Shown: positions 12,071 through 48,238, counted from the first letter of the stretch. The stretch is 64,000 bases of DNA from Deltaproteobacteria bacterium (GCA_016213015.1 JACRCE010000011.1:10586-74585); one strand, 5' to 3'. Numbers and translations are program-made. Notes: generated by a model from the letters alone, not told the origin.

Positions 12071-12853
12071 GTGCAAAAAATGAAAAAACAACTTGAAACC
12101 ACGACAATCTTCCTGCTCGCATTCGTTGCGTTTGCATTAGCGGCGTTCATACCGGCTCAGGTTCAGGCACTCCCTACCTTGCAGCTTGACATAGCAAATG
12201 GAGTGTACGACCCTGTGAGCAAGACGATCGTTTCGTCCGCCGACAAATTTACGTTGTATGCATTCCTATTGCCTGGAAAAACTCAGGCGCCGGTAACCGG
12301 CGCATACTATATCTCCGCGGCGCTCGTTGCTACGAATGGCAAGACAATAGGGGCAGGCAACTTCGGCAGCTTCTCCTTCAACGGCGTTCAAAAGAACGTT
12401 ACCAACGATATGGTCTTTGGGACGCCGCCGCTTGAGGCCAATCTGGCATTTGACCCAGGCGATCTTTCCAAACACGGCATATACCCGACGTACTTCAACG
12501 AGTTTTCATTCAAGTTCAACTCCAACAACGAAACGGCTCAATACAACACGCAAGACAGGGCCAAGGCAGGTACGCCGATCAACATCGCGCCGAATCCTAA
12601 CAACGGCAACATGTATTACGCGGCGTTTTCGGTGGATACGACGCTTCTCGCGCCCGGCTATGCCATACATTTCGACCTGTACAACGAGAAGGTCAGACGC
12701 GGGGATACCGATGTAAATCTCTTTGCTCCCTTCTCGCACGACGCTCAGTCAAGGGCAAAGGTGCCGGAGCCTGCCACGGCGCTGTTGATTGGCGCCGGAT
12801 TTGCCGGTCTGTGGCTACATGGCAAAAAACAGAAGGGCACCTCTAAAAATTAG
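12071..12853 (+). CDS. PEP-CTERM sorting-domain secreted protein
   Basis: The ORF has an N-terminal signal peptide and a C-terminus VPEPATALLIGAGFAGLWLHGKKQKG (PEP motif, hydrophobic helix, basic tail). The last residues TSKN and the TAG stop are encoded by the terminal inverted repeat of repeat element B1. Confidence 0.8.
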   Translation: MQKMKKQLETTTIFLLAFVAFALAAFIPAQVQALPTLQLDIANGVYDPVSKTIVSSADKFTLYAFLLPGKTQAPVTGAYYISAALVATNGKTIGAGNFGSFSFNGVQKNVTNDMVFGTPPLEANLAFDPGDLSKHGIYPTYFNEFSFKFNSNNETAQYNTQDRAKAGTPINIAPNPNNGNMYYAAFSVDTTLLAPGYAIHFDLYNEKVRRGDTDVNLFAPFSHDAQSRAKVPEPATALLIGAGFAGLWLHGKKQKGTSKN

Positions 12854-12970
12854 AGATTTTTTCCGCAATCAAGGAATGGCGAAAATAAAAAGTGGAGCAT
12901 ATATGTGAATATGTGAGCATTTTTATTTTAGCCATGACACAGAGCCCGGAAAAAAGATCAATTTTTAGAG
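12842..12970. mobile_element. MITE-like element, family B, copy B1 (intact, ~129 bp)
   Basis: It has imperfect ~24-bp TIRs TCTAAAAATTAGAGATTTTTTCCG ... CCGGAAAAAAGATCAATTTTTAGAG. The interior is homologous to the other B copies. Confidence 0.6.
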
Positions 12971-18416: not shown

Positions 18417-18470
18417 GGGTTGAAAGACGGTTCAGAGATAACCATAAACCGTCTTCCAACCGTCTTTAAC
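18417..18470. repeat. hairpin repeat, family E (GTTGAAAGACGGTT ... AACCGTCTT..AAC)
   Basis: This inverted repeat lies between purD and purE and is followed by the AGGAGG RBS of purE. A second copy is at 18967-19012. Confidence 0.6.
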
Positions 18471-18480
18471 AGGAGGCCAT

Positions 18481-18981
18481 ATGTCTTCAAAACCGGTCGT
18501 AGGCATTCTCATGGGGAGCGATTCAGACCTGGCCGTAATGCGGGAGGCGGAGAGCGCGCTCAAGACGCTTGGCGTGCCATGCGAGATGACCATATCGTCG
18601 GCGCACAGGACGCCTGAGAGGACCGGCGAGTATGCGAAAACGGCCGTAAAGCGCGGCATAAAGGTCATAATCGCCGGGGCCGGAAGCGCGGCTCATCTTG
18701 CAGGGTTCGTTGCCGCGCATACCCCCTTGCCCGTAATCGGCGTGCCCATCGATTCAGGTCCGCTCAAAGGGCTTGACGCCCTTCTTGCAACCGTTCAGAT
18801 GCCTGGCGGAGTGCCAGTCGCATCGATGGCGCTTGGCAAGGCAGGGGCAAGGAACGCGGGCATCTTCGCGGCCCAGATACTTGCCGTATCGGACAAGGCG
18901 CTGGCAAAAAGGCTTGCCTCATATAAAAAGACGCTCGCAAGACAGGTTGAGGAAAAGGCAAGGAAGTTGAAAGACGGTTGA
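18481..18981 (+). CDS. purE: N5-carboxyaminoimidazole ribonucleotide mutase
   Basis: The 166-aa ORF has the signature GILMGSDSDL...IAGAGSAAHL. Confidence 0.9.
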   Translation: MSSKPVVGILMGSDSDLAVMREAESALKTLGVPCEMTISSAHRTPERTGEYAKTAVKRGIKVIIAGAGSAAHLAGFVAAHTPLPVIGVPIDSGPLKGLDALLATVQMPGGVPVASMALGKAGARNAGIFAAQILAVSDKALAKRLASYKKTLARQVEEKARKLKDG

Positions 18982-19012
18982 GAAATAACCGTGAACCGTC
19001 TTTAACCATGAA
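18967..19012. repeat. hairpin repeat, family E copy 2
   Basis: The sequence is GTTGAAAGACGGTTgagaaataaccgtgAACCGTCTTTAAC. It overlaps the 3' end of purE. Confidence 0.6.
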
Positions 19013-21913: not shown

Positions 21914-21953
21914 TGCGGTTATCCGTTAACGGTTAACGATGAAGGCATAAAAG

Positions 21954-23697: not shown

Positions 23698-25629
23698 TCA
23701 TCTCAGTGTTCGCACGTCGCCATTCCTGAGCGTAACGCGCTCCTTGTCAAAATATTCCAGTATCTCTATGGCGAGCTTTCTGCCACAACCGACGATGTCC
23801 CTGAACTCAGCCGCCTTTATGCCGTGCTTTGCCTTTATGTGCTCAATCATGGCAACGCGCGAGGCCGCCTCAGCCTCGACGCGGATATAACTGCCTTCCT
23901 TGAGCTTGACAAGCACACCGGTCTTTTGCAGATACCCCAACACCCGCTTAACGTCACTGTCTTTGAACAAGAGTTTCCCCAGCGCCTCAGTACCGATATG
24001 TCCGAAACCGTCGGCAACGATTGCGGCCCTTAGCGCGCGCTCTATATCGGCGTCAACGCCGGTAAGTTTCAATACCGGCGAATGAGAGGCCATTGCAACG
24101 AGATGCCCGTCCTTTTTCAAGACCTTCCGCTCGACAAGCGAGGCAATGACATCCGCAAAAAACTCATTTTTACGGTCTTTCATCCGCATTGCCGCATAGA
24201 GTGTTTCTTCATCAAGCCCGGCTTGAACGGGGCGCGCCGTATGATGCGCTGACAGAGCGCCAAGCGTCTTGCCCTCTATCTCCTCGGCCCATTTATTGCT
24301 TGCCGCCCAATGACCGATTACCTTGAGAGAGCGCGCAAAATCCTTTTCAGGCGCGCGCTCGTTGAGCATGAGGCCGAGCGTTCGCAAGTCGATTACAACA
24401 ACACTGTCAAGCAGACCGCAAATGACATCAGGCGTATCGTTATTATACAGAAATCCGGCATCCGCAAGACGCGGAGCAAGGGATGGCGACGGATACGGCA
24501 GGACAACAATGCCGCCGCCGATGGTCATGTTCCTTGCCGGGTCTCTCAATATGAATCTGTCCCCCCTTAGCATGGGCAAAGGGGTCTTGAGATACAACCT
24601 GCCAAGCACGGCCTTTTGACGCGCAACGGTAGTCCCGATAAAACGCACCGAGGCGAGCGTCTCGGCCGTGAGGTGATGCACCTTAACGTTTGAAAGGAAT
24701 TTTCCGTCAAAAGATGCCTCCTCCACAAATTCTATAAGGCAGTCCGCCTGAAACCTGTTGGCCGGCGAAGCGTTGAAAAAGGCCGCGAGTTCCTTGGAAC
24801 ATACCATAAAACCCCTGCGAACGTCCTTATGTTCAACGCCGGACAGGTTCAGGGCAACACGCTGTCCGGTACGCGCCGCGTACGCGTCCTTATGTGTGCT
24901 TTGTATGCCGCGCACCCTGACATGAGCGCCGGTCGGAAATATCATTGCCTCATCGCCCTTTTTGATCGAGCCTGACGCAACCGTGCCTGTAACGACCGCT
25001 CCAAACCCCTTTACCGCGAATGAACGGTCTATCGGCAGTCTGAACGGAACGTCATCGGAATCTCTAACAGACCTTTCAACGTATCCGGCGATCAGCGCCT
25101 TGAGTTCCTCAATCCCCTGCCCGGTGCGCGTTGACGTGGAGCACACGGGGGACACTGAAAGCGTTGTGCCTTTTACAAGCGCCTCGATGTCGCGTTTAAC
25201 CGCCTTCAAACGCTCGCCGGTTGCGAGGTCGGCCTTCGTTATGACGAATATCGCGCCCCTTATGCCGAGGAGCCTGATTATCTCAAGGTGCTCCCTTGTC
25301 TGCGGCATCACGCCGTCATCCACGGCCACGCACACGAGGGCAAGGTCGATCCCCGTCGCGCCCGCGAGCATGTTGCGTATGAACCGCTCATGCCCAGGCA
25401 CGTCGACTATGGCGATGCGCGCAAGGCCGCGTCGGGTTTGAACGTCCGTGTGTGCGAAGCCCAAGTCAATGGAGATGCCGCGCCTCTTCTCCTCTGCAAG
25501 AGAGTCCGTGTCCATGCCGGTCAAAGCCCTCACGAGCGCGGTCTTGCCGTGGTCGATATGCCCGGCAGTGCCAAGGGTGAAGGTCAAAGGGATTGGACTA
25601 TCCGATGTTTTGTCTGATGATTGCATCAT
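23698..25629 (-). CDS. selB: selenocysteine-specific translation elongation factor
   Basis: The ORF has [11 protein letters not shown] and DVPGHERF G-domain motifs and a long C-terminal extension typical of SECIS-binding winged-helix domains. The probable start is ATG 25629 or 25626; the track uses TTG 25656. Confidence 0.85.
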
Positions 25630-25707
25630 GGCAATTATGTGGGTCTTTCCAAACAAGGCGTCTTATAAAAATATCTTGTCCGCGTCGAGTTGTCCAGCCC
25701 TAAGTAA

Positions 25708-25787
25708 GACGGTTATCTGTGGACGGTTATCGGTTTAAGGATAATTATTCTTTCACCTGCACCGATAATTGATAACCGATAACCGTC
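25708..25787. repeat. palindromic intergenic repeat, family D, copy D1 (GGTTATCGG / CCGATAACC arms)
   Basis: The sequence is gacGGTTATCtgtggacGGTTATCGGTTTAAGGATAATTATTCTTTCACCtgcaCCGATAAttGATAACCGATAACCgtc. Confidence 0.65.
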
Positions 25788-25904
25788 TTTGCTGATTTTA
25801 CAGACCGGCCTTTGTGTGGTAGGATTGAGCATTCGATCGGCATAACTCAAACTGTAAGCACACCGGACAAACCTGACGGCTTGGATAAAGGATAACAAAT
25901 TATT

Positions 25905-27608
25905 ATGGCTAATATACTTTTTGAACCCGGTTCCCCATCTTTCATGGATCTCATTGGAAACGGCAAGATACACGTCGTTCCCAGATACCAGAGGGATTAT
26001 TCGTGGAATTATGAAGAATGGGATGATCTATGGAATGACATTGAAGGCATTAAAACCGAAAAGATACATTATATGGGTTACGTGGTTTTGCAAAAAACAG
26101 ATGACCCGCTGAAATTTTTGGTTATAGACGGCCAACAAAGAATAACCACGTTAAGCATTCTGGCGCTTGGCGTTATCAAGGTATTGGAAGACTGGGTCGA
26201 GCAAGGCGTGGACGCGGCCAACAACAAAAGAAGGATTGCAATTCTTTCGGATAAATTTATCGGATTTACTCCAGCCGCGTCTCTCATGCCTGTAAGCAAG
26301 TTACACCTTAACCGCAACAATGACGGCTTTTATAAAAGTTATTTGATACGGCGGCGCAAACCAACGGCGATTGGAAAGTTGAAGCCGTCGGAAAAAAAGA
26401 TGTGGAGGGCATTCGAGTTCTTTTGCGATAAATTGAAAAAAAGATTCGATGACGATAAGGACGGGGCAACGCTTTCGGACTTTCTGGAAACGACCATTTC
26501 AATGAATCTTGTCTTTACCTCTATTACGGTAGGAAATGATCTGAATGCCTATAAAGTATTTGAGACTCTGAATGCAAGGGGCGTCAAACTTTCAACAGGA
26601 GACCTGATTAAAAACTATCTGTTTGCCGAGGTGGCAAAAACAAGCGAGCATGATCTGGATGAAGCGGAAAGACAATGGCAAAGGATAAACGACATCCTGC
26701 AACAGATCGAACTGCCTGTATTTTTAAGGCACTATTGGAATTCAGCTCATACATTGGAACGAAAAAATACCCTTTACAAAGCCCTGAATAGCGAAGTAAG
26801 AGGCGCCGCCGCCGTATTTAATCTACTTGGGGACATGGATAAGCTGGCTCTTGTTTATACGGCACTTGACAAACCATCCGATACCTTATGGAGCAAGGAA
26901 CAAGCCGTCCTTATAGAAGAACTGTCTTTAGTCAGTAGAACACAGCCTTTTCCTTTATTGCTGGCCGCTTACAAGCATATAAAGCCGTTAGATGAGGCGG
27001 AATTTACCAAGATAATAAGGGATTTAGTTGTCGTGTCTTTTCGTTATAATACCGTCAGCGGATTGAATCCCAATACACAGGAAGAAGCATATAACAAAAC
27101 GGCTATTGGTATCAGTAAGGGAACGTATAAAACCGCGCGCGACGTGTTTAACGGTTACACAAAGGAATTATATGTGGCTGATGAGAAATTTGAAAACGAC
27201 TTTACCTACATGACAATGAACACCACGCGCAATAAAACACTGGCAAGGTATCTTTTATGCAAAATGGAAAGACAACTCTCCGCCATACCGGTTGATTGGA
27301 ACGACAGTAAAGTTACCATTGAACATATACTTCCTGAAAATCCCAATTCCGAATGGGAAAAATGGTTCGACGCTGAACAACAGAATGAAAGCATCTACCG
27401 TATAGGCAACCTTACCTTGCTGGAAACAGGCAAAAACAAAGATTGCGGAAATAAGCTTTTTGCCGAAAAAAAAGACATCTATGCGACAAGTCAATACCTG
27501 CTTACCAAAAACAAAACATGCTTTAACGAATGGAAGCCTGAAGTCTTATTAAGAAGACAGCAAGGGATGGCCTCTCTTGCTAAAACCGTTTGGAAGGTTC
27601 AGTATTAA
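25905..27608 (+). CDS. DUF262/DUF1524 protein (GmrSD-like type IV restriction / ParB-like NTPase + His-Me-finger nuclease)
   Basis: The N-terminal motifs are VPRYQRDYSW and IDGQQRITT. The C-terminal motif is TIEHILPEN...RIGNLTLLETGKN. GC content is markedly lower (~40-45 %) than the ~60 % of flanking genes. Confidence 0.75.
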   Translation: MANILFEPGSPSFMDLIGNGKIHVVPRYQRDYSWNYEEWDDLWNDIEGIKTEKIHYMGYVVLQKTDDPLKFLVIDGQQRITTLSILALGVIKVLEDWVEQGVDAANNKRRIAILSDKFIGFTPAASLMPVSKLHLNRNNDGFYKSYLIRRRKPTAIGKLKPSEKKMWRAFEFFCDKLKKRFDDDKDGATLSDFLETTISMNLVFTSITVGNDLNAYKVFETLNARGVKLSTGDLIKNYLFAEVAKTSEHDLDEAERQWQRINDILQQIELPVFLRHYWNSAHTLERKNTLYKALNSEVRGAAAVFNLLGDMDKLALVYTALDKPSDTLWSKEQAVLIEELSLVSRTQPFPLLLAAYKHIKPLDEAEFTKIIRDLVVVSFRYNTVSGLNPNTQEEAYNKTAIGISKGTYKTARDVFNGYTKELYVADEKFENDFTYMTMNTTRNKTLARYLLCKMERQLSAIPVDWNDSKVTIEHILPENPNSEWEKWFDAEQQNESIYRIGNLTLLETGKNKDCGNKLFAEKKDIYATSQYLLTKNKTCFNEWKPEVLLRRQQGMASLAKTVWKVQY

Positions 27609-27635
27609 AAATATTCGACGGTTACGAGCCAATCC

Positions 27636-28397
27636 ATGTCCATCAAACCCAAGGCGGCCTTTTTCTCGTTCACCTGTTGCGAGGGGTGCCAGCTCATGAT
27701 ACTGAGCTGCGAGAAGGAACTGCCGTCCATACTCGAACATATCGAGATAGTCAACTTCCGCGAGGCCATGACCGAACGGAGCGAGGACTATCAGGCGGCC
27801 TTCATCGAAGGCTCCGTCAGCAAACGTGAAGAAATCAAAAAACTCAAAAAGATACGTGAAAAGGCAAAGGTGGTGGTTGCCCTTGGCGCGTGCTCCGCAA
27901 TTGGCGGACTTAATTGCCTTAAAAACCGCTTCCAGATGGACTATCTAAGGAAAGAGGTCTACGGGCAGGACGGCCTGAAGTTCAAGGCCTTTGAAACCAT
28001 ACCGGCAAGGCCCATTGACTCGATAATCCATGTCGACTACTATATACACGGCTGTCCCATACCCAAAAAAGAGTTCCTGTCCGTCCTGACCTCCCTGCTC
28101 ATGGGAAGCGTCCCACGCATCGTGAACCACCCGGTTTGCGTAGACTGCAAGATAGCGGGAAATATCTGCGTGTTCGAGAAGGGCTTAACCTGCCTCGGCC
28201 CGATAACAAGGGCCGGATGCGACGCGGTCTGTATTACTTACGGATGCGTATGCTGGGGATGCAGGGGGCCGGTCGACGACCCGAACACCGCGGCGCATAA
28301 GGAAACGCTTCTAAGACACGGCCTTTCAGCCGATGACGTATCGCTCGCTTTGAGTCTTTACGGCGCTCACAAAACAAAGACTACCTCTAAAAATTAG
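27636..28397 (+). CDS. [NiFe]-hydrogenase small subunit, group-3 (MvhG/VhuG-like)
   Basis: The ORF has the N-terminal FSFTCCEGCQ motif and distal [4Fe-4S] Cys clusters (CVDCK...C, CxxGCxxxC...CWGCRGP). The TAG stop at 28395-28397 lies within the terminus of repeat B2. Confidence 0.85.
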   Translation: MSIKPKAAFFSFTCCEGCQLMILSCEKELPSILEHIEIVNFREAMTERSEDYQAAFIEGSVSKREEIKKLKKIREKAKVVVALGACSAIGGLNCLKNRFQMDYLRKEVYGQDGLKFKAFETIPARPIDSIIHVDYYIHGCPIPKKEFLSVLTSLLMGSVPRIVNHPVCVDCKIAGNICVFEKGLTCLGPITRAGCDAVCITYGCVCWGCRGPVDDPNTAAHKETLLRHGLSADDVSLALSLYGAHKTKTTSKN

Positions 28398-28654
28398 GGA
28401 AGCTCTGATTAATTCGCCAATCCGTCATTCTCGCTCCGCGAAGCAATCTCGTCTTCAAGGAAATCAATAAGTTACGAGATTGCCGCGCCGCAAAAGCGCG
28501 GCTCGCAATGACAAATAAGAATTAATCAGAGCTTCCTTAGATAGTTTTCCCGAGGTCAAGGAAGGGCGAAAATAAAAAGCGTAGCATATATGCAATATGT
28601 GAGCATTTTTATTTTAGCCATGACGCAGAGATCGGGAAAAATAGCAATTTTTAA
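28385..28654. mobile_element. family-B MITE-like element copy B2 carrying a nested family-A MITE
   Basis: The B TIRs are cctctaaaaattag ... gggaaaaatagcaatttttaa. The interior is homologous to B1 (agcatatatgcaatatgtgagcatttttattttagccatgac). Confidence 0.6.
28398..28536 (+). mobile_element. MITE family A, copy A1 (139 bp)
   Basis: It has perfect 17-bp TIRs GGAAGCTCTGATTAATT / AATTAATCAGAGCTTCC and is flanked by a 4-bp direct duplication TTAG (28394-28397 and 28537-28540). Confidence 0.8.
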
Positions 28655-29944
28655 ATGAAAAAAGACCTCCACATAAAGATAGATGAAATAACCCGCGTCG
28701 AGGGACACGGCAACGTGGTCATTGACGTAAAGAAGGGCGTGGTTAAGGATGTCGCTCTTGAGATAATCGAGTCCCCCCGGTTTTTCGAGATGATGTTAAG
28801 GGGCAGAAGATACGACGAGGCACACCACATCATGTCGCGCATCTGCGGCATCTGCGCGGTGAGCCATACGTCGGCCTCTCTCAAGGCCATAGAGTCGGCA
28901 ATGGGCATTCGCATCTCAAGGCAGGCGACGCTATTGAGGAAACTCGCCTTTGCGGGCGAGATGCTTCAGAGCCATATACTGCATCTGTACTTTCTCGTAT
29001 TCCCTGACTTTTTAGGCGAAGGCTCGATAGTGCCGATATTGAAGACCCATCCTGAGATAGCAAGGAAGGGTCTTGAACTCAAGAGGCTCGCCAACGAGAT
29101 ATGCGCCGTCGTGGCCGGCAGGCACATCCACCCGATATCGCTCGCCCCCGGAGGCGTGGCGCATCTGCCGACCGCTCAGGAACTTAAAAAACTCCGCTCC
29201 AGCCTCGATGCCTCCTTTGACGACCTTGAGTTCACTTATGACCTGCTCTCAAAGGTTCACGTGCCGGAGTTCGAGAAAAGGCGCGACTTCGTGTCGCTGA
29301 AGTCGCGGGGAGAGTACGGCGCTTACGCCGGAGAGCCGGCATCAAGCGAGGGCTACGCCATTACGGCCAAGACCTACACGAAAAAGATTCGGGAGTACAC
29401 GGTTGCCCACTCCGCGGCAAAGCAGGCAAGAAGTCCGAAGGGCGCCTTCATGGTAGGCGCCCTCGCAAGGGTCAACAACAACTGGAAAAGGCTCTCACAG
29501 CGCTCGCGCGCTATAGCCGAGAAGGCCGGATTGAGGCCGCCATGCTTCAATCCGTTTCACAACAACACGGCCCAACTCGTGGAATGTTTTCAGATGACCG
29601 GGGACGCGATACGGATGATAGACGCCCTGCTTGAGGCCGGATTGAAGCCGGAGCCGTTGAAAAAACCCAAGGGATGGGGCATCGGCATAGGCATCGTCGA
29701 GGCCCCGCGAGGGACGCTCTACCACGAATACCGGATAAACAGGGACGGCTTTGTCGAGGCCGCGGAGTGCGTCATACCCACGGCGCAGAATCTAAGGGCT
29801 ATCGAAGAAGACCTCCGCGCCTTCGTGCCGCTCATAATGGATAAGCCGAAAGAGGAGATACGGCGTATAGTGGAGACGCTCGTAAGGGCCTATGACCCGT
29901 GCATATCGTGTTCGACGCATATAATGGACGTAAGATTCGTTTAG
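28655..29944 (+). CDS. [NiFe]-hydrogenase large subunit, group-3
   Basis: The ORF has the N-terminal RICGICAVSH motif and the C-terminal DPCISCSTH motif, followed by a short IMDVRFV tail. The first Cys is Cys and not Sec, so this is NiFe, not NiFeSe. The ATG directly abuts the end of MITE B2 and no SD is visible. Confidence 0.9.
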   Translation: MKKDLHIKIDEITRVEGHGNVVIDVKKGVVKDVALEIIESPRFFEMMLRGRRYDEAHHIMSRICGICAVSHTSASLKAIESAMGIRISRQATLLRKLAFAGEMLQSHILHLYFLVFPDFLGEGSIVPILKTHPEIARKGLELKRLANEICAVVAGRHIHPISLAPGGVAHLPTAQELKKLRSSLDASFDDLEFTYDLLSKVHVPEFEKRRDFVSLKSRGEYGAYAGEPASSEGYAITAKTYTKKIREYTVAHSAAKQARSPKGAFMVGALARVNNNWKRLSQRSRAIAEKAGLRPPCFNPFHNNTAQLVECFQMTGDAIRMIDALLEAGLKPEPLKKPKGWGIGIGIVEAPRGTLYHEYRINRDGFVEAAECVIPTAQNLRAIEEDLRAFVPLIMDKPKEEIRRIVETLVRAYDPCISCSTHIMDVRFV

Positions 29945-29953
29945 AGGGAAAGA

Positions 29954-31075
29954 TTGCGTATAAACATCGCTAAAGCGCCGCTCCTTGAGCGGATACTCCA
30001 GAGGCAGATAGTCTCTTCCAAATCCGAAGACGTTGACCTCAAGGCCGTGCTCCGGGAGATACTCCTTCGGGCAAACAGGTTCGTGCCCTCGGAGTCGGGT
30101 TCCATACTGCTTGACGCGCCCGCCGGGGATGAAACCGACAAGGCGCTTGCCAAGCTCTACTTTGTGGCATGCTTCGGCAAGGGTTCCGTCGCTCTCGTCA
30201 ATACCACGCTGCCTTCAAGCACGGGTATAGCGGGCAGGACATACTCGACAGGAAAGCCGTACATAAGCAAAAAGGTGTCCAGAGACAAATGCTTCTACCC
30301 GGGCCTCGACAAAAAAACAAAGTTCTGCACGAAGTCCATCGTATGCGCGCCGATAAAATTGAAAAAACATACAATCGGCGTAATAGAGTTGATCAACAGG
30401 CTCTCCGACATAAACTACACGTCAAAGGATTTGTCGCTCCTTAAGATATTCGCCGAATACACCTCAAAGCTCATCCAGAACGCGCTTGACGCAAAGACCT
30501 TCGAAATACTCTCGAAAAAGGACAACCTCACGTCGCTTTACAACGACCGGTACTTCTACAATCAGCTTACAAAGGAAACGGCGCGCTCAATCAAGCGCGG
30601 GACGGACTTGAGTCTCATCTTCATGGATCTGGACAGGTTCAAGGAGGTCAACGACACCTACGGACACCTTGCCGGAAGCCGGGTGCTGACCGAGGTCGGC
30701 TGTATAATAAAAGATACGCTTCCCACCGCTGATTCAAGAGGCATTCGCTACGGCGGGGACGAATACGTCGTGATACTGCCGGGGTTGAATCTCGACGAGG
30801 CGGCCGACTACGCGGAAAAACTGAGAATGGCCATTCAGGAGTTCACGTTCCTGACGAAAAGGCTCCACGCAAACGCCAAACCCATAATGCTCAAGGGTCA
30901 TATAACAAGCTCGATCGGGGCGGCCTCTCTCATGGAGAACGTGGAGGAGGCCGGCAGCGTCAACGAGATACGCGACAACCTGATAAAACAGGCGGACACG
31001 GCCATGTACAAGTCCAAACAGAACGGCAGAAACCTTATAACAGTTGCCCCGGCCGGAGGCAAAAAGAAAAGCTGA
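29954..31075 (+). CDS. GAF-domain diguanylate cyclase (GGDEF)
   Basis: The ORF has a TTG start with gagggaaag upstream. An N-terminal GAF domain is followed by RYGGDEYVV (intact GGDEF-type A-site). The upstream inhibitory-site motif RxxD is not clearly seen. Confidence 0.8.
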   Translation: MRINIAKAPLLERILQRQIVSSKSEDVDLKAVLREILLRANRFVPSESGSILLDAPAGDETDKALAKLYFVACFGKGSVALVNTTLPSSTGIAGRTYSTGKPYISKKVSRDKCFYPGLDKKTKFCTKSIVCAPIKLKKHTIGVIELINRLSDINYTSKDLSLLKIFAEYTSKLIQNALDAKTFEILSKKDNLTSLYNDRYFYNQLTKETARSIKRGTDLSLIFMDLDRFKEVNDTYGHLAGSRVLTEVGCIIKDTLPTADSRGIRYGGDEYVVILPGLNLDEAADYAEKLRMAIQEFTFLTKRLHANAKPIMLKGHITSSIGAASLMENVEEAGSVNEIRDNLIKQADTAMYKSKQNGRNLITVAPAGGKKKS

Positions 31076-31077
31076 AA

Positions 31078-31167
31078 ACGGTTATCAGTTATCGGTAGTC
31101 GGTTATCGGTTTGAAAACAATGATTCTTTCACCTTCGCCGATAACCAATTACCGATTACCGATAACC
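31078..31167. repeat. family D palindromic repeat, copy D2
   Basis: The sequence is aacGGTTATCagttatcggtagtcGGTTATCGGTTTgaaaacaatgATTCTTTCACCttcgCCGATAAccaattaCCGATtaCCGATAACC. It has the same orientation as D1. Confidence 0.65.
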
Positions 31168-31544
31168 TTCTTCACCAGCCTCAACTCCTCAGGCAACCTC
31201 ATCGGCTTGCCGTCATTTCCGACCGAGGCAAGCGTTACGCTGCCCTCAACCAGAGTCTTCTCCTGCTTGAACAAGACGTGTTCAAACGTAATGGTCGCGC
31301 CCGTTGCGCCTGAGAGACGCGTATCGAGGATGAGCAGGTCGTCATATCTCGCCGGTGCGATATATCGCGCCTCCACGCTCCGCACCACGAATATCACGCC
31401 TGAGGTGTGCAGTTCTCCAAGCGAAACACCCCGCTCTCTCAACAACTCCGTCCTGCCGCGCTCGAAGTATCGCAGATAGTTGGCGTAGTAGACCACGCCT
31501 CCGCAGTCGGTGTCCTCGTAATATATCCTTATCGGTATACGCAT
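31149..31544 (-). CDS. acyl-CoA thioesterase, YbgC/4HBT family
   Basis: The 131-aa ORF begins MRIPIRIYYEDTDCGGVVYYANYLRYFERGR, a hotdog-fold signature. Confidence 0.8.
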   Translation of the reverse strand: MRIPIRIYYEDTDCGGVVYYANYLRYFERGRTELLRERGVSLGELHTSGVIFVVRSVEARYIAPARYDDLLILDTRLSGATGATITFEHVLFKQEKTLVEGSVTLASVGNDGKPMRLPEELRLVKKVIGNR

Positions 31545-32877: not shown

Positions 32878-32880
32878 TAG

Positions 32881-33062
32881 CGCGGTTATCGGTGGACGGT
32901 TATCCGTTATCGGATTAAGGATAAGGAAAACCACCTCACCCTACCCTCTCCCCCTTGGGGAGAGTAGAAAAAAACGAAACTCTTTCTTAGGGAAGCAATT
33001 AATCAGAGCTTCCTTAATTATCTTTTTCCTTCACCGATAACCGTCAACTGATAACCGATAAC
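32881..33062. repeat. family D palindromic repeat, copy D3, expanded by an internal insertion containing a family-A MITE remnant
   Basis: The D arms are gcGGTTATCGGtggacGGTTATCcGTTATCGGaTTAAGGATAA ... TTATCTTTTTCCTTCACCGATAACCgtcaactGATAACCGATAAC. The interior carries the hairpin ctctcccccttggggagag and, at 32991-33013, GGAAGC+AATTAATCAGAGCTTCC, flanked by TTAG/TTAA. Confidence 0.6.
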
Positions 33063-33083
33063 AGCCTTTACATATATGCGGCC

Positions 33084-33956
33084 TTGCTGTACCATATTTT
33101 TATGGTACTAACAGCGGTTGTCTTACTTGTCGTCCTGCTCGTCATGCCGGATGCCGCCGATGCGTGGGGGCCGGCGACGCACCTTGAACTCGCGCTCACG
33201 GCGCTCAACAACGCCTCCGTCGTTTCCGCACCGGTCAGGTCGCTCATCGAACATTTCCCTTACGACTTCCTTTACGGCAACATAAGCGCAGACATCTATG
33301 TCGGTAAAAATCTCGTTGAGGAGTTGAAGCACTGCCATAACTGGAAGGCCGGTTTCGCCCTCCTGAAAAACGCAAAGTCCGGCTCTCAGAGGGCGTTTGC
33401 CTACGGGTATCTCTCCCATCTCGCGGCGGACACCGTGGCTCATAATCACTTCATCCCCGAAAGGATGCTTCGCTCGTTCTCCGCAAGGACATTGAGGCAC
33501 GTCTACTGGGAGATGCGGGCCGACGCCCTGGCCGACAAACGTGTCTGGCGCCTGCCGAAAAGGATCGCGGCTCAGGCCGCTGAAGACAACGACGCCCTGT
33601 TGAACGCAACTATTGAGGGCGCTCCGTTATCGTTCAGAACGAACAAGACCATATTCTCAAGCATCATGAGCATCAACAGGATGAAGCACTGGCACAGGAT
33701 GCTCGATCTGCTCTCCGTTACGTCAAGATGGTCTCTCGACAAACAGGAAAGGGAGTTGCACTTCAACGACTCCCTTGACGCCATAATGGGACTTCTCAAA
33801 TCCCCGCTCAAGGCGCCTTGCCTCAAAAAAGACCCCATCGGCAGACTCAACCTTGCCCTTGCCTCCACGGCGAGAAAACGCCTGAGGGCAATGAAAAAGG
33901 CCGGCCTCGCATGGGAAGAGGCGCTTTCAGAGGAACTCGCCAAAGTAGCGCCCTGA
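33084..33956 (+). CDS. secreted zinc-dependent phospholipase C / S1-P1 nuclease-like protein
   Basis: The ORF has a signal peptide, then AWGPATHLELA...HLAADTVAHNHF His-rich zinc-ligand motifs. Family assignment is tentative. Confidence 0.5.
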   Translation: MLYHIFMVLTAVVLLVVLLVMPDAADAWGPATHLELALTALNNASVVSAPVRSLIEHFPYDFLYGNISADIYVGKNLVEELKHCHNWKAGFALLKNAKSGSQRAFAYGYLSHLAADTVAHNHFIPERMLRSFSARTLRHVYWEMRADALADKRVWRLPKRIAAQAAEDNDALLNATIEGAPLSFRTNKTIFSSIMSINRMKHWHRMLDLLSVTSRWSLDKQERELHFNDSLDAIMGLLKSPLKAPCLKKDPIGRLNLALASTARKRLRAMKKAGLAWEEALSEELAKVAP

Positions 33957-34320
33957 TAAAAATTAGAAATTTTTTTCGAGGTCAAGGAAGGGCGAAAATA
34001 AACTTGTCCTCGTGGTATCTATCGAGCAAAGCGGAGCATATAATTAAGGAAGCTCTGATTAATTCGCCGACCCGTCATTCTCGCTCCGCGAAGCAATCTC
34101 GTCTTCAAGGAAATCAACAACTTAGAGATTGCCGCGCCGCGAAAGCGCGGCTCGCAATGACAAAATAAGAATTAATCAGAGGTTCCTTAATATATGAACA
34201 TTGGGCCAACCGCAAAAGCGCGGTTAGGCCCTGCAAGGAAGCTCACGCTCTCTTTGAAGCCCGTCTTATTGCGCCCTGACGCCCGTAACGTAACAGTCGG
34301 GGAAAATAGCAATTTTTACC
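33957..34320. mobile_element. family-B element copy B3 (long variant) carrying a nested family-A MITE at a different internal site
   Basis: The left TIR is aaaaattagaaatttttttcgaggtcaagg and the right TIR is cggggaaaatagcaatttttacc. Its terminus overlaps the TAA stop of coaBC (34316-34318). Confidence 0.55.
34048..34186 (+). mobile_element. MITE family A, copy A2 (139 bp)
   Basis: The TIRs are GGAAGCTCTGATTAATT / AATTAATCAGAGGTTCC (one mismatch). It is flanked by the 4-bp duplication TTAA (34044-34047 and 34187-34190). Confidence 0.8.
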
Positions 34321-38802: not shown

Positions 38803-38822
38803 CCGTATGCCCCATTCCGAAG

Positions 38823-38911
38823 CCGATAATCGGTTGACGGTTATCAGTGAAGGTGAACGAATAATTATCCTTAAACCGATAACTGATAACCGTCTTATAA
38901 CCGATAACCGT
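38823..38911. repeat. family D palindromic repeat, copy D4 (inverted orientation)
   Basis: The sequence is ccGATAAtCGGttgacGGTTATCagtGAAGGTGAAcGAATAATTATCCTTAAACCGATAActGATAACCgtcttataaCCGATAACCG. Confidence 0.65.
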
Positions 38912-38917
38912 TCTTAC

Positions 38918-39715
38918 TTACAACGTCTGCATTACCCATGTTACCCTGCCGACAATCGCAACTTCTCCGGCGCTCGCCGTAAGCTCCGGGAACTGCGGGT
39001 TATCGGGCCGCATAATCAACGCATTATTGCCCTTGAATATGCGCCGCACTGTGACGCTTCCGCTTGCCGTCCTTACGATGTATATCGCGCCGTCCCTTAG
39101 CGTTAAATCCCTATACTGTATCCCGACGATTGCGCCGTCTCTTATGGTGGCCTCCATGCTGTCGTCCGACACGCTAAAGGCAACCGGGCCCGCCTTTGCC
39201 AGAAGCTCTGAAACGATCAGCGTATCAACCGGTACGCGCAGGAGCGCGTTAGCAGGGTCTTTCAACAACTCAAGCCTGTACACGTTGATCGAGATCATCT
39301 CTTGCGGGGAGCGCTCGTCTTGGACGCCGCCCCCGGCCTCAAGGCCGCGCCAATCTATCACCGGCTCCTCTGCCCTCGCGTATTGATTGAGCGCGGCATC
39401 AACCACGGCGTACATGCCTTCATCGTTGACGTGTCCATACTGCCCTTGTGCCCGCGCAGGGACCTGCGAAGGCATAATCCCCTTGCCTGACATAAGCCAC
39501 TCCATGTTAACGCCTAACTTCAGGCATATTAACTCGGTTAACGACGCGCCGGGAGACCTCTTGCCCTGCTCAATCATGGTTATATAAGCCGGAGATACGT
39601 TCAATAAGGCCGCAAATTCAGCGCGGTTAAGCCTGCCGCGTACGATGCCGATCCTGCTTGCGATGCTTGACTTCCGACGGCCTTCCGAACCGTTGTTAAT
39701 TCTTTTTCTTGACAT
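38918..39715 (-). CDS. XRE-type HTH + S24 (LexA/CI-like) peptidase repressor
   Basis: The N-terminal HTH is AEFAALLNVSPAYITMIEQGKRSP, followed by a long linker. The C-terminal S24 fold (...SMEATIRDGAIVGIQ...) has a conserved Ser-Lys dyad region. Confidence 0.7.
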   Translation of the reverse strand: MSRKRINNGSEGRRKSSIASRIGIVRGRLNRAEFAALLNVSPAYITMIEQGKRSPGASLTELICLKLGVNMEWLMSGKGIMPSQVPARAQGQYGHVNDEGMYAVVDAALNQYARAEEPVIDWRGLEAGGGVQDERSPQEMISINVYRLELLKDPANALLRVPVDTLIVSELLAKAGPVAFSVSDDSMEATIRDGAIVGIQYRDLTLRDGAIYIVRTASGSVTVRRIFKGNNALIMRPDNPQFPELTASAGEVAIVGRVTWVMQTL

Positions 39716-44294: not shown

Positions 44295-44324
44295 AGCCCT
44301 CCTTGCCACATGCGATTATGATAG

Positions 44325-44462
44325 GGAAGGTCTGATTAATTCTTATTTTGTCATTGCGAGCCGCGCTTTCGCGGCGCGGCAATCTCTAAGTTGTTGATTT
44401 CCTTGAAGACGAGATTCTACGCTGCGCGAGAATGACGGGTCGGCGAATTAATCAGAGCTTCC
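44325..44462 (-). mobile_element. MITE family A, copy A4 (138 bp, inverted orientation)
   Basis: The TIRs are GGAAGGTCTGATTAATT / AATTAATCAGAGCTTCC. It is flanked by the 4-bp duplication ATAG (44321-44324 and 44463-44466) and lies about 30 bp upstream of the glyQ start. Confidence 0.8.
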
Positions 44463-44597
44463 ATAGGCAAACATAGCAAAAAAAAGCGCGAAAGTCATCA
44501 TGGAAATAATCAGGCGGCTTATACCTCCGGGACGCACAAAAACAACGTTCAGGGTGTATACTGTAACGTCGTCAGGATTACCAAAAGGATACCCACT

Positions 44598-47767: not shown

Positions 47768-48238
47768 CCTTTAAAAATTAGGGAGGCTCTGATTAATTCT
47801 TATTTTGTCATTGCGAGCCCAGCACCACTTTGGATTATGAAAGCGTGTTCCTTGGCAAATTCCTTCGTGCAACAAAGTGGTGCTGGGTTGATTTCCTTGA
47901 AGACGAGATTCTACGCTGCGCGAGAATGACGGATCGGCGAATAAATCAGAGCTTCCTTAGATAGTTTTTCCGAGTTCAAGGAAGGGCGAAAATAAACTTG
48001 TCCTCGCGTGTATTTAGCGGGGAAAGCGCAGCATATACGTTAATATGTGAGCATTGGGCTACCTCCCCCATTCCCCCCCTTAGTAAGGGGGGGAATGGGG
48101 GAGGTAGCCTCGGCAAGGAATTGCTCATTTTGAAAGCGCGTCTTATCGCGCCTGCGGCGCGAGCCGACGGGCAACCGATGTATTTTCGCCCTGACACCCG
48201 TAACGCAATCGGTCGGGAAAAATAGCAATCTTTAGAGG
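47768..48238. mobile_element. composite repeat: family-B long variant (B4) with nested A3 and a 53-bp perfect palindrome
   Basis: The B TIRs are cctttaaaaattag ... cgggaaaaatagcaatctttagagg. The interior is homologous to B3. The palindrome is ggctacctcccccattccccccc-ttagtaa-gggggggaatgggggaggtagcc at ~48057-48109. Confidence 0.55.
47782..47956 (+). mobile_element. MITE family A, copy A3 (175 bp; internal hairpin module replaced)
   Basis: The TIRs are GGAGGCTCTGATTAATT / AAATCAGAGCTTCC. The TSD is TTAG (47778-47781 and 47957-47960). The internal hairpin is CCCAGCACCACTTT...AAAGTGGTGCTGGG instead of CCGCGC...GCGCGG. Confidence 0.75.

Follow-up and report, generated by a model that had tools for sequence, protein, structure and literature searches.

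A solitary GmrSD-like nuclease gene of the HEC-06 clade in an uncultured deltaproteobacterial lineage: a probable old insertion into a hydrogenase operon leader

Several described anti-phage proteins combine an N-terminal DUF262 domain with a C-terminal DUF1524 nuclease domain. HEC-06 (Hma-embedded candidate 06), chosen for study as a gene embedded in Hma systems, cut the plaquing of several coliphages in E. coli; its defence was abolished by Q79A, R80A, E471A or H472A, and the protein has little in common with BrxU and carries no RLFDS motif (10.1101/2024.01.29.577857). HEC-06 also blocks T4, and a homologue from Bacteroides gives protection from T-even phages whose cytosines are modified, but none from T4-GT7 (10.1101/2025.02.28.640651). 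In DndI, phosphorothioate (PT) marks on self DNA stimulate the ATPase and release the enzyme, and unmarked phage DNA is nicked (PMC11662687). The present analysis concerns a gene of this kind, called gmrSD below, at positions 25905-27608 (+ strand) of a 64,000-nt stretch of DNA from an uncultured Deltaproteobacteria bacterium (GCA_016213015.1, JACRCE010000011.1:10586-74585; hereafter the window), where it lies directly upstream of genes for a [NiFe]-hydrogenase (hydS and hydL) and a GGDEF protein.

We consider it highly probable that this open reading frame (ORF) encodes a solitary, functional anti-phage nuclease of the HEC-06 clade, which would have entered the hydrogenase (hyd) leader long ago as a promoterless insertion, and that the hairpin repeats found nearby (the D repeats) are unrelated to it. 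The gene was studied by profile searches, alignment, AlphaFold2 modelling and the ratio of nonsynonymous to synonymous substitution rates (dN/dS). It starts with ATG and runs uninterrupted for 567 codons, the length of its homologues; the NCBI record of the product (P0001/MBI5234820.1) was already annotated as a DUF262 protein. A preliminary description of this DNA had seen in the 567-aa product a DGQQR motif, a QRxYxW-type motif and a His-Me nuclease motif, and translation and Pfam searches bear this out. A helical linker connects an N-terminal DUF262/ParB-like NTPase domain (GmrSD_N, PF03235, residues 15-240, 2e-34) with a C-terminal nuclease domain of the DUF1524 His-Me finger type (GmrSD_C, PF07510, residues 425-556, 5.3e-27). 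The first domain contains YQRDYSW at 28-34 (within VPRYQRDYSW, 25-34) and DGQQR at 75-79 (within IDGQQRITTL, 74-83); the nuclease domain contains EHILPEN at 473-479 (within TIEHILPEN, 471-479) and GNLTLLETGKNKDCGNK at 501-517, as well as IGNLTLLETGKNKDCGNK, with E473-H474, N502 and N511 as candidate nuclease residues (EH...N...N).

The best PADLOC model for the protein was HEC-06 (PDLC04154, E = 3.7e-201, 667.7 bits), with residues 1-566 matching profile positions 1-567 of 569; weaker matches were to the library's 'Orf5', SspE and type IV models. Across 40 homologues of 44-77% identity, Q29, R30, W34, D75-G76-Q77-Q78-R79, E473, H474, P477, N502 and N511 are invariant. These include Q78, R79, E473 and H474, the motif counterparts of the defence-essential Q79, R80, E471 and H472 of HEC-06, an equivalence judged from the motifs rather than from an alignment with the protein that was tested. 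Because the HEC-06 profile is matched from end to end and the motifs are invariant, the predicted protein is placed in the GmrSD-like superfamily, in the HEC-06 clade and not with BrxU. The earlier assignment to type IV or BrxU-like enzymes was thus right in naming a GmrSD-like DUF262/DUF1524 nuclease, as the PADLOC check showed, and wrong in its reference to BrxU. With gmrSD, a defence family for which PADLOC models and experimental validation already exist gains one more member.

An AlphaFold2 model built from the alignment of the 40 homologues was confident (pLDDT 91, pTM 0.80); in it, a long helical linker joins an alpha/beta N-domain to a C-terminal beta-beta-alpha region. Searched with Foldseek against the PDB, it matched at E < 0.001 only DndI (9JFL, TM 0.72-0.75, E = 4e-19), SspE (7DRS, 7DRR) and BrxU (7P9M, TM 0.33, E = 8e-4). 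DndI was also the best match of the protein in a PDB sequence search (1.1e-16). These matches, together with the secondary PADLOC hits to SspE models and the alignment of the PT-sensing tyrosine of DndI (Y25 in YQRDYSW) with Y28 of gmrSD, are what one would cite for a PT-sensing effector like DndI or SspE, in which PT marks of the host, made by dnd or ssp genes elsewhere in the genome, would stimulate the NTPase and release the protein from self DNA, and unmarked phage DNA would be nicked. We regard this as unlikely. Identity to DndI is only 17-18%, against a HEC-06 model matched at 668 bits, and DndI may be the nearest fold by default, as to our knowledge HEC-06 has no solved structure. The aligned tyrosine belongs to a motif common to all DUF262 proteins and does not discriminate. 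Moreover, none of the 30 further large ORFs searched in the 64-kb window is a dnd or ssp gene, the insert comprises just one ORF, and HEC-06 is active alone in E. coli K-12.

In the mechanism that we propose instead, the N-terminal ParB-like DUF262 domain would bind and hydrolyse nucleoside triphosphate (NTP) through DGQQR, and this hydrolysis would license cleavage of invading DNA by the C-terminal His-Me finger (E473/H474, N502, N511). By analogy, the target would most likely be phage DNA with modified bases, as in type IV-like, modification-dependent restriction. A modification-dependent mechanism is favoured because the match to HEC-06 is overwhelming, because HEC-06 worked on its own in K-12, and because neither the insert nor the 30 further large ORFs of the window include dnd or ssp genes; BREX and other defence genes were likewise not found among these 30.

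The composition of gmrSD sets it apart from its surroundings. Its GC content is 0.418 and its GC content at third codon positions (GC3) 0.452, compared with 0.53-0.57 and 0.61-0.72 for eleven surrounding genes and a window mean GC of 0.544; the contrast had been noted before, with the neighbours placed at about 60% GC, which is too high for genes of about 55%. Along the sequence, GC drops from 0.55-0.62 to 0.40-0.44 over precisely the gmrSD ORF and then recovers, so that the low-GC tract is that ORF alone and excludes the hydrogenase and GGDEF genes. Among 56 window ORFs of at least 120 aa, gmrSD has the lowest GC3; the two other ORFs with GC3 below 0.55 overlap tRNA genes and are probably spurious.

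Homologues above 44% identity were found in Calditrichota, Elusimicrobiota, Omnitrophota, Bacteroidota, an Altiarchaeales archaeon and others. The nearest (P0002, 77%) comes from an organism of about 40% GC, where it is flanked by gcvPA and gcvPB, and the homologous genes are AT-richer than their flanks in every context compared. Taken together, the low GC3, a precise empty site in related contigs (L115-L117) and the scatter of homologues across phyla in unrelated contexts indicate that gmrSD is horizontally acquired, by all appearances as a bare promoterless ORF cassette set between the native Shine-Dalgarno sequence and the start codon of hydS. An acquisition beside the hydrogenase had already been proposed from composition, and this part of the preliminary description is upheld by the empty site and the homologues.

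The empty site is provided by L115, L116 and L117, which carry OsmC-selD-selB followed by hydS-hydL-GGDEF-thioesterase-rnc-UDG-PLC-coaBC in the order of the window, with selB directly beside hydS and without gmrSD. In a blastn comparison, the window-specific segment 25704-27631 stands where L115 has 78 nt. Relative to this empty site, the inserted segment runs from 25893 to 27635 (+ strand; about 1,743 nt by junction alignment, the edges being good to within a few nt) and consists of 12 nt (TAACAAATTATT), the ORF and 27 nt (AAATATTCGACGGTTACGAGCCAATCC), replacing 8 nt (CGGCATGC) present in L115 and L116. It holds one ORF, and its neighbours are housekeeping genes. The rest of the blastn difference is made up of a D repeat (D1) and a window-specific insertion of 37 nt in the shared 5'-untranslated region (5'-UTR) at 25850-25886 (+), present in neither H52 nor L115. 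The leader upstream of gmrSD in the window and in the second related lineage, H52, is homologous to that upstream of hydS in L115, and this homology stops right after AAAGGA (25887-25892, +), which alignment with the empty site identifies as the native Shine-Dalgarno sequence upstream of hydS, taken over by gmrSD. On the 3' side, homology to the empty site restarts at the hydS ATG. Profile searches of the genes from gmrSD to GGDEF returned no transposase or integrase, and no vehicle or integrase for the acquisition of gmrSD was found.

The H52 lineage was reached through a SelB-anchored scan of species-representative genomes, which gave one close relative, a 4.7-kb contig (L001) of the Hainich H52 metagenome-assembled genome; a hydL-anchored metagenome scan gave relatives of 63-69% identity only, and L113, L115-L117 and the other decisive contigs were drawn from a 90% hydL cluster. 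SelB of L001 is 81% identical to that of the window, and the contig ends 197 nt into a gene starting MANILFEPGSPSFM, divergent from selB as in the window. A second H52 contig, L113, carries the C-terminal 224 codons of gmrSD before hydS, with the same 27-nt junction. The junctions in L001 and L113 are identical to those of the window, and one insertion event therefore lies behind both copies. The preliminary description had named homologues of similar composition at the same position in all related genomes as evidence against its reading; such a position is shared in one of the two related lineages (H52), the other (L115 type) being empty.

Nucleotide identity over 10.4 kb of 11 flanking genes is 90.2% between L115 and H52, 87.9% between the window and L115 and 86.3% between the window and H52. 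The gene is thus found in the two more distant lineages and is missing from L115, the closest partner of H52. This distribution fits an insertion that predates the split of the window and H52 lineages, the L115-type lineage having come to be without gmrSD through loss or replacement by an empty allele. We accordingly picture gmrSD as having probably entered as an ORF-only cassette before that split, and as having since been kept by purifying selection.

Substitution rates agree with a long residence. Compared with two homologous copies, gmrSD has a dN/dS of 0.10-0.20, similar to the 0.11-0.30 of its housekeeping neighbours, and since the values are alike the gene is, by this measure, under purifying selection. 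The synonymous divergence (dS) between the window and H52 copies is 0.61, compared with 0.35-0.52 for flanking genes and 0.93-1.29 to the copy in L081. A dS at least that of the flanking genes marks the acquisition, as far as such rates can tell, as old and not recent. The GC3 of 0.45 in the window, above the 0.30-0.34 of homologues elsewhere, would fit partial amelioration. The age of the gene, its absence from one sister lineage and a perhaps interrupted copy in H52 could also be taken as signs of a decaying, non-functional passenger of an old transfer. That gmrSD is such a passenger is very unlikely in our judgement, given an intact frame of homologue length, catalytic residues that are all invariant, a confident structure model and a dN/dS comparable to that of its neighbours.

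The place of the insertion bears on the expression of the gene. A scan located a promoter-like site, TTTACA-17 nt-TAGGAT with an upstream TG, at 25797-25825 (+), conserved in the window, H52 and L115; we infer that it is the native hyd promoter, which would now drive gmrSD as first cistron. A terminator scan of the 27-nt gap between gmrSD and hydS found no terminator-like site. Because the leader is conserved and this gap has no predicted terminator, gmrSD appears to have become the first cistron of the hyd operon, leaving hydS without its original ribosome-binding site, and gmrSD-hydS-hydL-GGDEF are probably transcribed from the old hyd promoter. In the window hydS is now preceded by ACGAGCCAATCC-ATG (27609-27635), without a clear Shine-Dalgarno sequence; the empty site L115:6288-6304 reads AAAGGA-CGGCATGC-ATG. 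Translation of hydS may now depend on coupling to gmrSD.

Some observations weigh against parts of the account given above. Modification dependence is known in vivo only, for HEC-06 and for a homologue 22% identical to HEC-06, and its extension to gmrSD would be by analogy. The closest solved fold is that of DndI, which senses phosphorothioate on self DNA and not modified phage DNA; this makes the target-discrimination step uncertain. The H52 copy of gmrSD is split over two contigs, and the L001 end diverges, with a stop after codon 54; this copy may be disrupted. Distances from gene to gene are mosaic, with hydS and hydL grouping the window nearest to L115, so that recombination among the three lineages is likely. 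The order of events is drawn from a three-taxon distance tree, and either loss in L115 or lateral spread of the occupied allele may account for the distribution. Finally, transcription from the hyd promoter and co-transcription of hydS are predicted from promoter conservation and from the terminator-free 27-nt gap.

The H52 contigs show further irregularities. When the H52 gmrSD stub (L001:1-197, reverse strand) is compared with L081:684-880 and window 25905-26100, its first 160 nt are 94% identical to the L081 copy, which comes from an unrelated organism of about 40% GC, and only 82% identical to the window copy; unlike this 5' stub, the C-terminal part of the H52 gene, on L113, has the window copy as its closer relative. 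Beyond codon 54 the end of L001 resembles neither copy, and the terminal bases there (…TAAAAATTAGAGG…) are similar to a motif from the second repeat family described below. A mosaic allele, interruption by a miniature inverted-repeat transposable element (MITE) or an assembly artefact are possible explanations of the stub. Beyond the gene, L113:1805-10205 and L119:10037-18420 (also L112 and L120) are 99.6% identical over 8.4 kb from nt 36 of hydL and unrelated upstream. These two contig types come from related samples. One has gmrSD-hydS-spacer upstream of hydL; the other has hydB (Fer4), hydG (FAD/NAD) and a distinct hydS (43% identical) with a 4-nt overlap with hydL, together a complete four-subunit operon of the sulfhydrogenase type. 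Either the two types differ by a real structural polymorphism that breaks at the hydL start, or a chimeric assembly appeared in two independent assemblies.

Four full copies of the D repeat occur in the window, all within 13 kb. D1 (25704-25791, +) lies between the divergent selB and hyd/gmrSD promoters, outside the gmrSD insert, and is not at this site in H52 or L115. D2 (31077-31177, +) lies between the convergent GGDEF and thioesterase genes, where L115 and H52 have other short sequences. D3 (32879-33065, +) is interrupted by an unrelated insert and is not in the relatives, and at D4 (38815-38925, - strand) the relatives keep a short remnant resembling a half-site (CCGATAACCG...CGTCTTAC). 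Over 74 nt (25712-25785 and 31088-31161; family D9), D1 and D2 are 80% identical and directly oriented, and both fold to long hairpins (z = -6.6 and -8.3 relative to shuffled sequences). If one mismatch is allowed, the core decamer CGGTTATCGG is found 32 times, against 4.9 expected. Each of D1-D4 sits in a homology gap relative to both L115-type and H52-type contigs, with aligning flanks; the sole D-like copy in H52 is at another site (L001:3919-3983). A script search found no D clusters in the other approximately 1.7 Mb of fetched loci, an Rfam scan of the window returned two tRNAs only and nothing at the D repeats, and no convincing target-site duplications were seen at D2 and D4. With the window as outgroup of the three lineages, either gain of a D copy on the window branch or its loss in the common ancestor of the L115 and H52 lineages would account for each case.

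The preliminary description, which had recorded D1 and D2 correctly as co-oriented repeats on either side of the segment and overlooked D3 and D4, went on to suggest that gmrSD, the hydrogenase genes and GGDEF form a D-bracketed unit. In this composite-element model the 5.3-kb segment would have moved or been assembled as one block delimited by D1 and D2, which are indeed real, co-oriented and similar, with four full copies close together. We give it almost no credence. The GC3 of hydS, hydL and GGDEF is host-like (0.67-0.71), and these three genes are linked in distant relatives that have neither gmrSD nor D repeats. Their chromosomal position is that of the window both in L115-L117 and in H52, neither of which has D1 or D2, and what is missing from the empty site is the gmrSD ORF alone. 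In H52, gmrSD has junctions identical to those of the window and D1 is missing, and no transposase or integrase lies in the block. The claim of a bracketed unit therefore fails against a host-like, syntenic trio and repeats that are missing from both related lineages. The D elements are best described as intergenic palindromes, similar to repetitive extragenic palindromic (REP) sequences or MITEs, that turn over independently of gmrSD and the hydrogenase genes; since D1-D4 are missing at orthologous sites, including those of H52 with its gmrSD, they had no part in the acquisition of gmrSD. That two of four local copies happen to bracket a 5.3-kb segment says nothing about mobility.

The interior of D3 (window 32915-33020) is about 100 nt of foreign DNA in which a small G/C hairpin (CACCCTACCCTCTCCCCCTTGGGGAGAGTAG) is accompanied by a lone terminal repeat from a second family, a repeat nested in a repeat. 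Short degenerate hairpins (AAGACGGTT...AACCGTCTT) and a degenerate half-copy at 18419-18456, 18966-19003 and 21916-21948 resemble D-family ends and may be older or minimal members of that family. Between hydS and hydL, an AT-rich gap of 258 nt (28392-28653) is made up of sequence of the second dispersed repeat family, copies or parts of which also occur at 12832-12967, 32990-33021, 33945-34318, 44317-44466 and 47770-48234. The first part of the gap, at about 28395-28539, resembles a MITE of 148 nt whose terminal inverted repeats are perfect over 19 bp (GGGAAGCTCTGATTAATTC / GAATTAATCAGAGCTTCCC-like; fold z = -6.7). The hydS stop codon is at the edge of this element and the last 8 residues of HydS differ from those of L115, in which the spacer between hydS and hydL is only 70 nt; H52 has only the distal part of the window's insert. 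A perfect 26-nt inverted repeat with a 1-nt spacer (GGCTACCTCCCCCATTCCCCCCCTTA / TAAGGGGGGGAATGGGGGAGGTAGCC) at 48057-48109 adjoins a second-family copy.

On the left flank of the insertion site, selB (23698-25656, - strand; start codon uncertain) is divergent from the hyd/gmrSD promoter. On the right are three native genes, all on the + strand: hydS (27636-28397), now the second cistron, for the small (delta) subunit of a [NiFe]-hydrogenase of the sulfhydrogenase/group-3b type; hydL (28655-29944) for the large (alpha) subunit, with L1 RICGICAVSH and L2 DPCISCSTH; and a GAF-GGDEF diguanylate cyclase gene (29954-31075), linked to hydS-hydL in relatives down to 56-60% identity. The position of hydS-hydL-GGDEF is constant in all close relatives, and in relatives of 56-69% identity the three genes are linked without gmrSD, selB or D repeats nearby. 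Taken as a unit (27636-31075; also in L086-L088 and L090), they encode a two-subunit, group-3b-like [NiFe]-hydrogenase of delta and alpha only, followed by the cyclase; the window has no hydrogenase beta or gamma genes. The arrangement suggests an H2- or redox-linked cyclic di-GMP signalling module unlike the described group 2c type. A group 2c sensory hydrogenase, considered as a partner for GGDEF, was ruled out by an L2 motif that reads DPCISCSTH and not SFDxCLVCTVH, the best NCBIfam matches being sulfhydrogenase alpha and delta. A selenocysteine-containing [NiFeSe] large subunit, considered on account of the adjacent selB and selD, was ruled out by an uninterrupted ORF with Cys in DPCISC.

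Homologues of gmrSD elsewhere raise the matter of how such genes travel. Phage and plasmid collections contained no close relative, identities reaching no more than 29% in the former and 39% in the latter; members of the wider gmrSD family occur on 260 plasmids. In L081:677-2430 a gene of the clade lies between gcvPA and gcvPB, co-directional and with gaps of 6 nt and 38 nt; in L122:3995-5695 one starts 5 nt after a HAD hydrolase gene and overlaps a pyrD-like gene by 8 nt; and in L082:7965-8001 and L084:7951-8001 clade genes follow thrS by 35 nt and rlmL by 49 nt. Similarity between L001 and L081 ends exactly at the ATG, although the two are 94% identical inside the ORF. Tight co-directional embedding was seen in 5 of the 7 contexts looked at, and around gmrSD in 5 contexts no convincing shared flanking motifs or target-site duplications were found. 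The embedding hints at, and does not prove, a dedicated mechanism for precise movement of promoterless cassettes, which could for example be a homing-like mobility driven by the gene's own His-Me/HNH nuclease. We think it improbable, and put it forward as a speculation, that HEC-06-clade genes in general spread in this manner, as ORF-only cassettes placed with near-codon precision into 5'-UTRs or intercistronic gaps, where they capture the promoter and ribosome-binding site of the host, the hyd leader of the window and H52 being one example. Otherwise, insertion by illegitimate recombination would have been random, and selection would have retained the copies that are expressed.

Three uncultured lineages thus give an occupied site, an empty site and identical junctions, and with them a view of a defence gene captured as a bare ORF in the leader of a metabolic or signalling operon. 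As this case illustrates, a defence gene that stands alone can reside outside defence islands and away from any recognisable mobile element, and a low GC content can persist long after acquisition. The locus also advises caution against taking dispersed palindromic repeats as the boundaries of mobile blocks.

Compared with known systems, the D elements share with REP sequences, bacterial interspersed mosaic elements (BIMEs) and MITEs the form of imperfect palindromes of 80-110 nt that are strictly intergenic, multicopy, found in both orientations and variably present at orthologous sites. They differ in being built of 7-nt-phased GGTTATC/GATAACC units around a conserved asymmetric loop, and no target-site duplication has been shown nor a cognate transposase (RAYT or other) identified for them. 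With the GmrSD/BrxU type IV enzymes (Eco94GmrSD, EcoCTGmrSD, BrxU 7P9K/7P9M), the window protein shares both Pfam domains and the logic of an NTP-dependent His-Me nuclease. The BrxU fold match is significant but superposes poorly overall, BrxU gives no PDB sequence match at E < 0.01, RLFDS is missing from the window protein, and no BREX genes are present in the window. DndI (9JFL) and SspE (6JIV/7DRS) have the DUF262 and DUF1524 cores and YQRDYSW in common with it; they differ in an identity of 15-18%, in the length of SspE, which is about 200 aa longer, and in working with adjacent dnd or ssp modification genes, of which the 64-kb window and the inserted unit have none. HEC-06 (PDLC04154-04157) is the closest of all these systems. 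The tested copy is embedded in an Hma system and has EHICP where the window protein has EHILP, and the window copy stands alone in a hydrogenase 5'-UTR of an uncultured 'Deltaproteobacteria' metagenome-assembled genome and is known from sequence. Both are single genes of the same length and the same DUF262-linker-DUF1524 layout, joined by an end-to-end profile match, and the DGQQR and EH motifs are conserved in gmrSD at the positions whose mutation kills HEC-06 defence.

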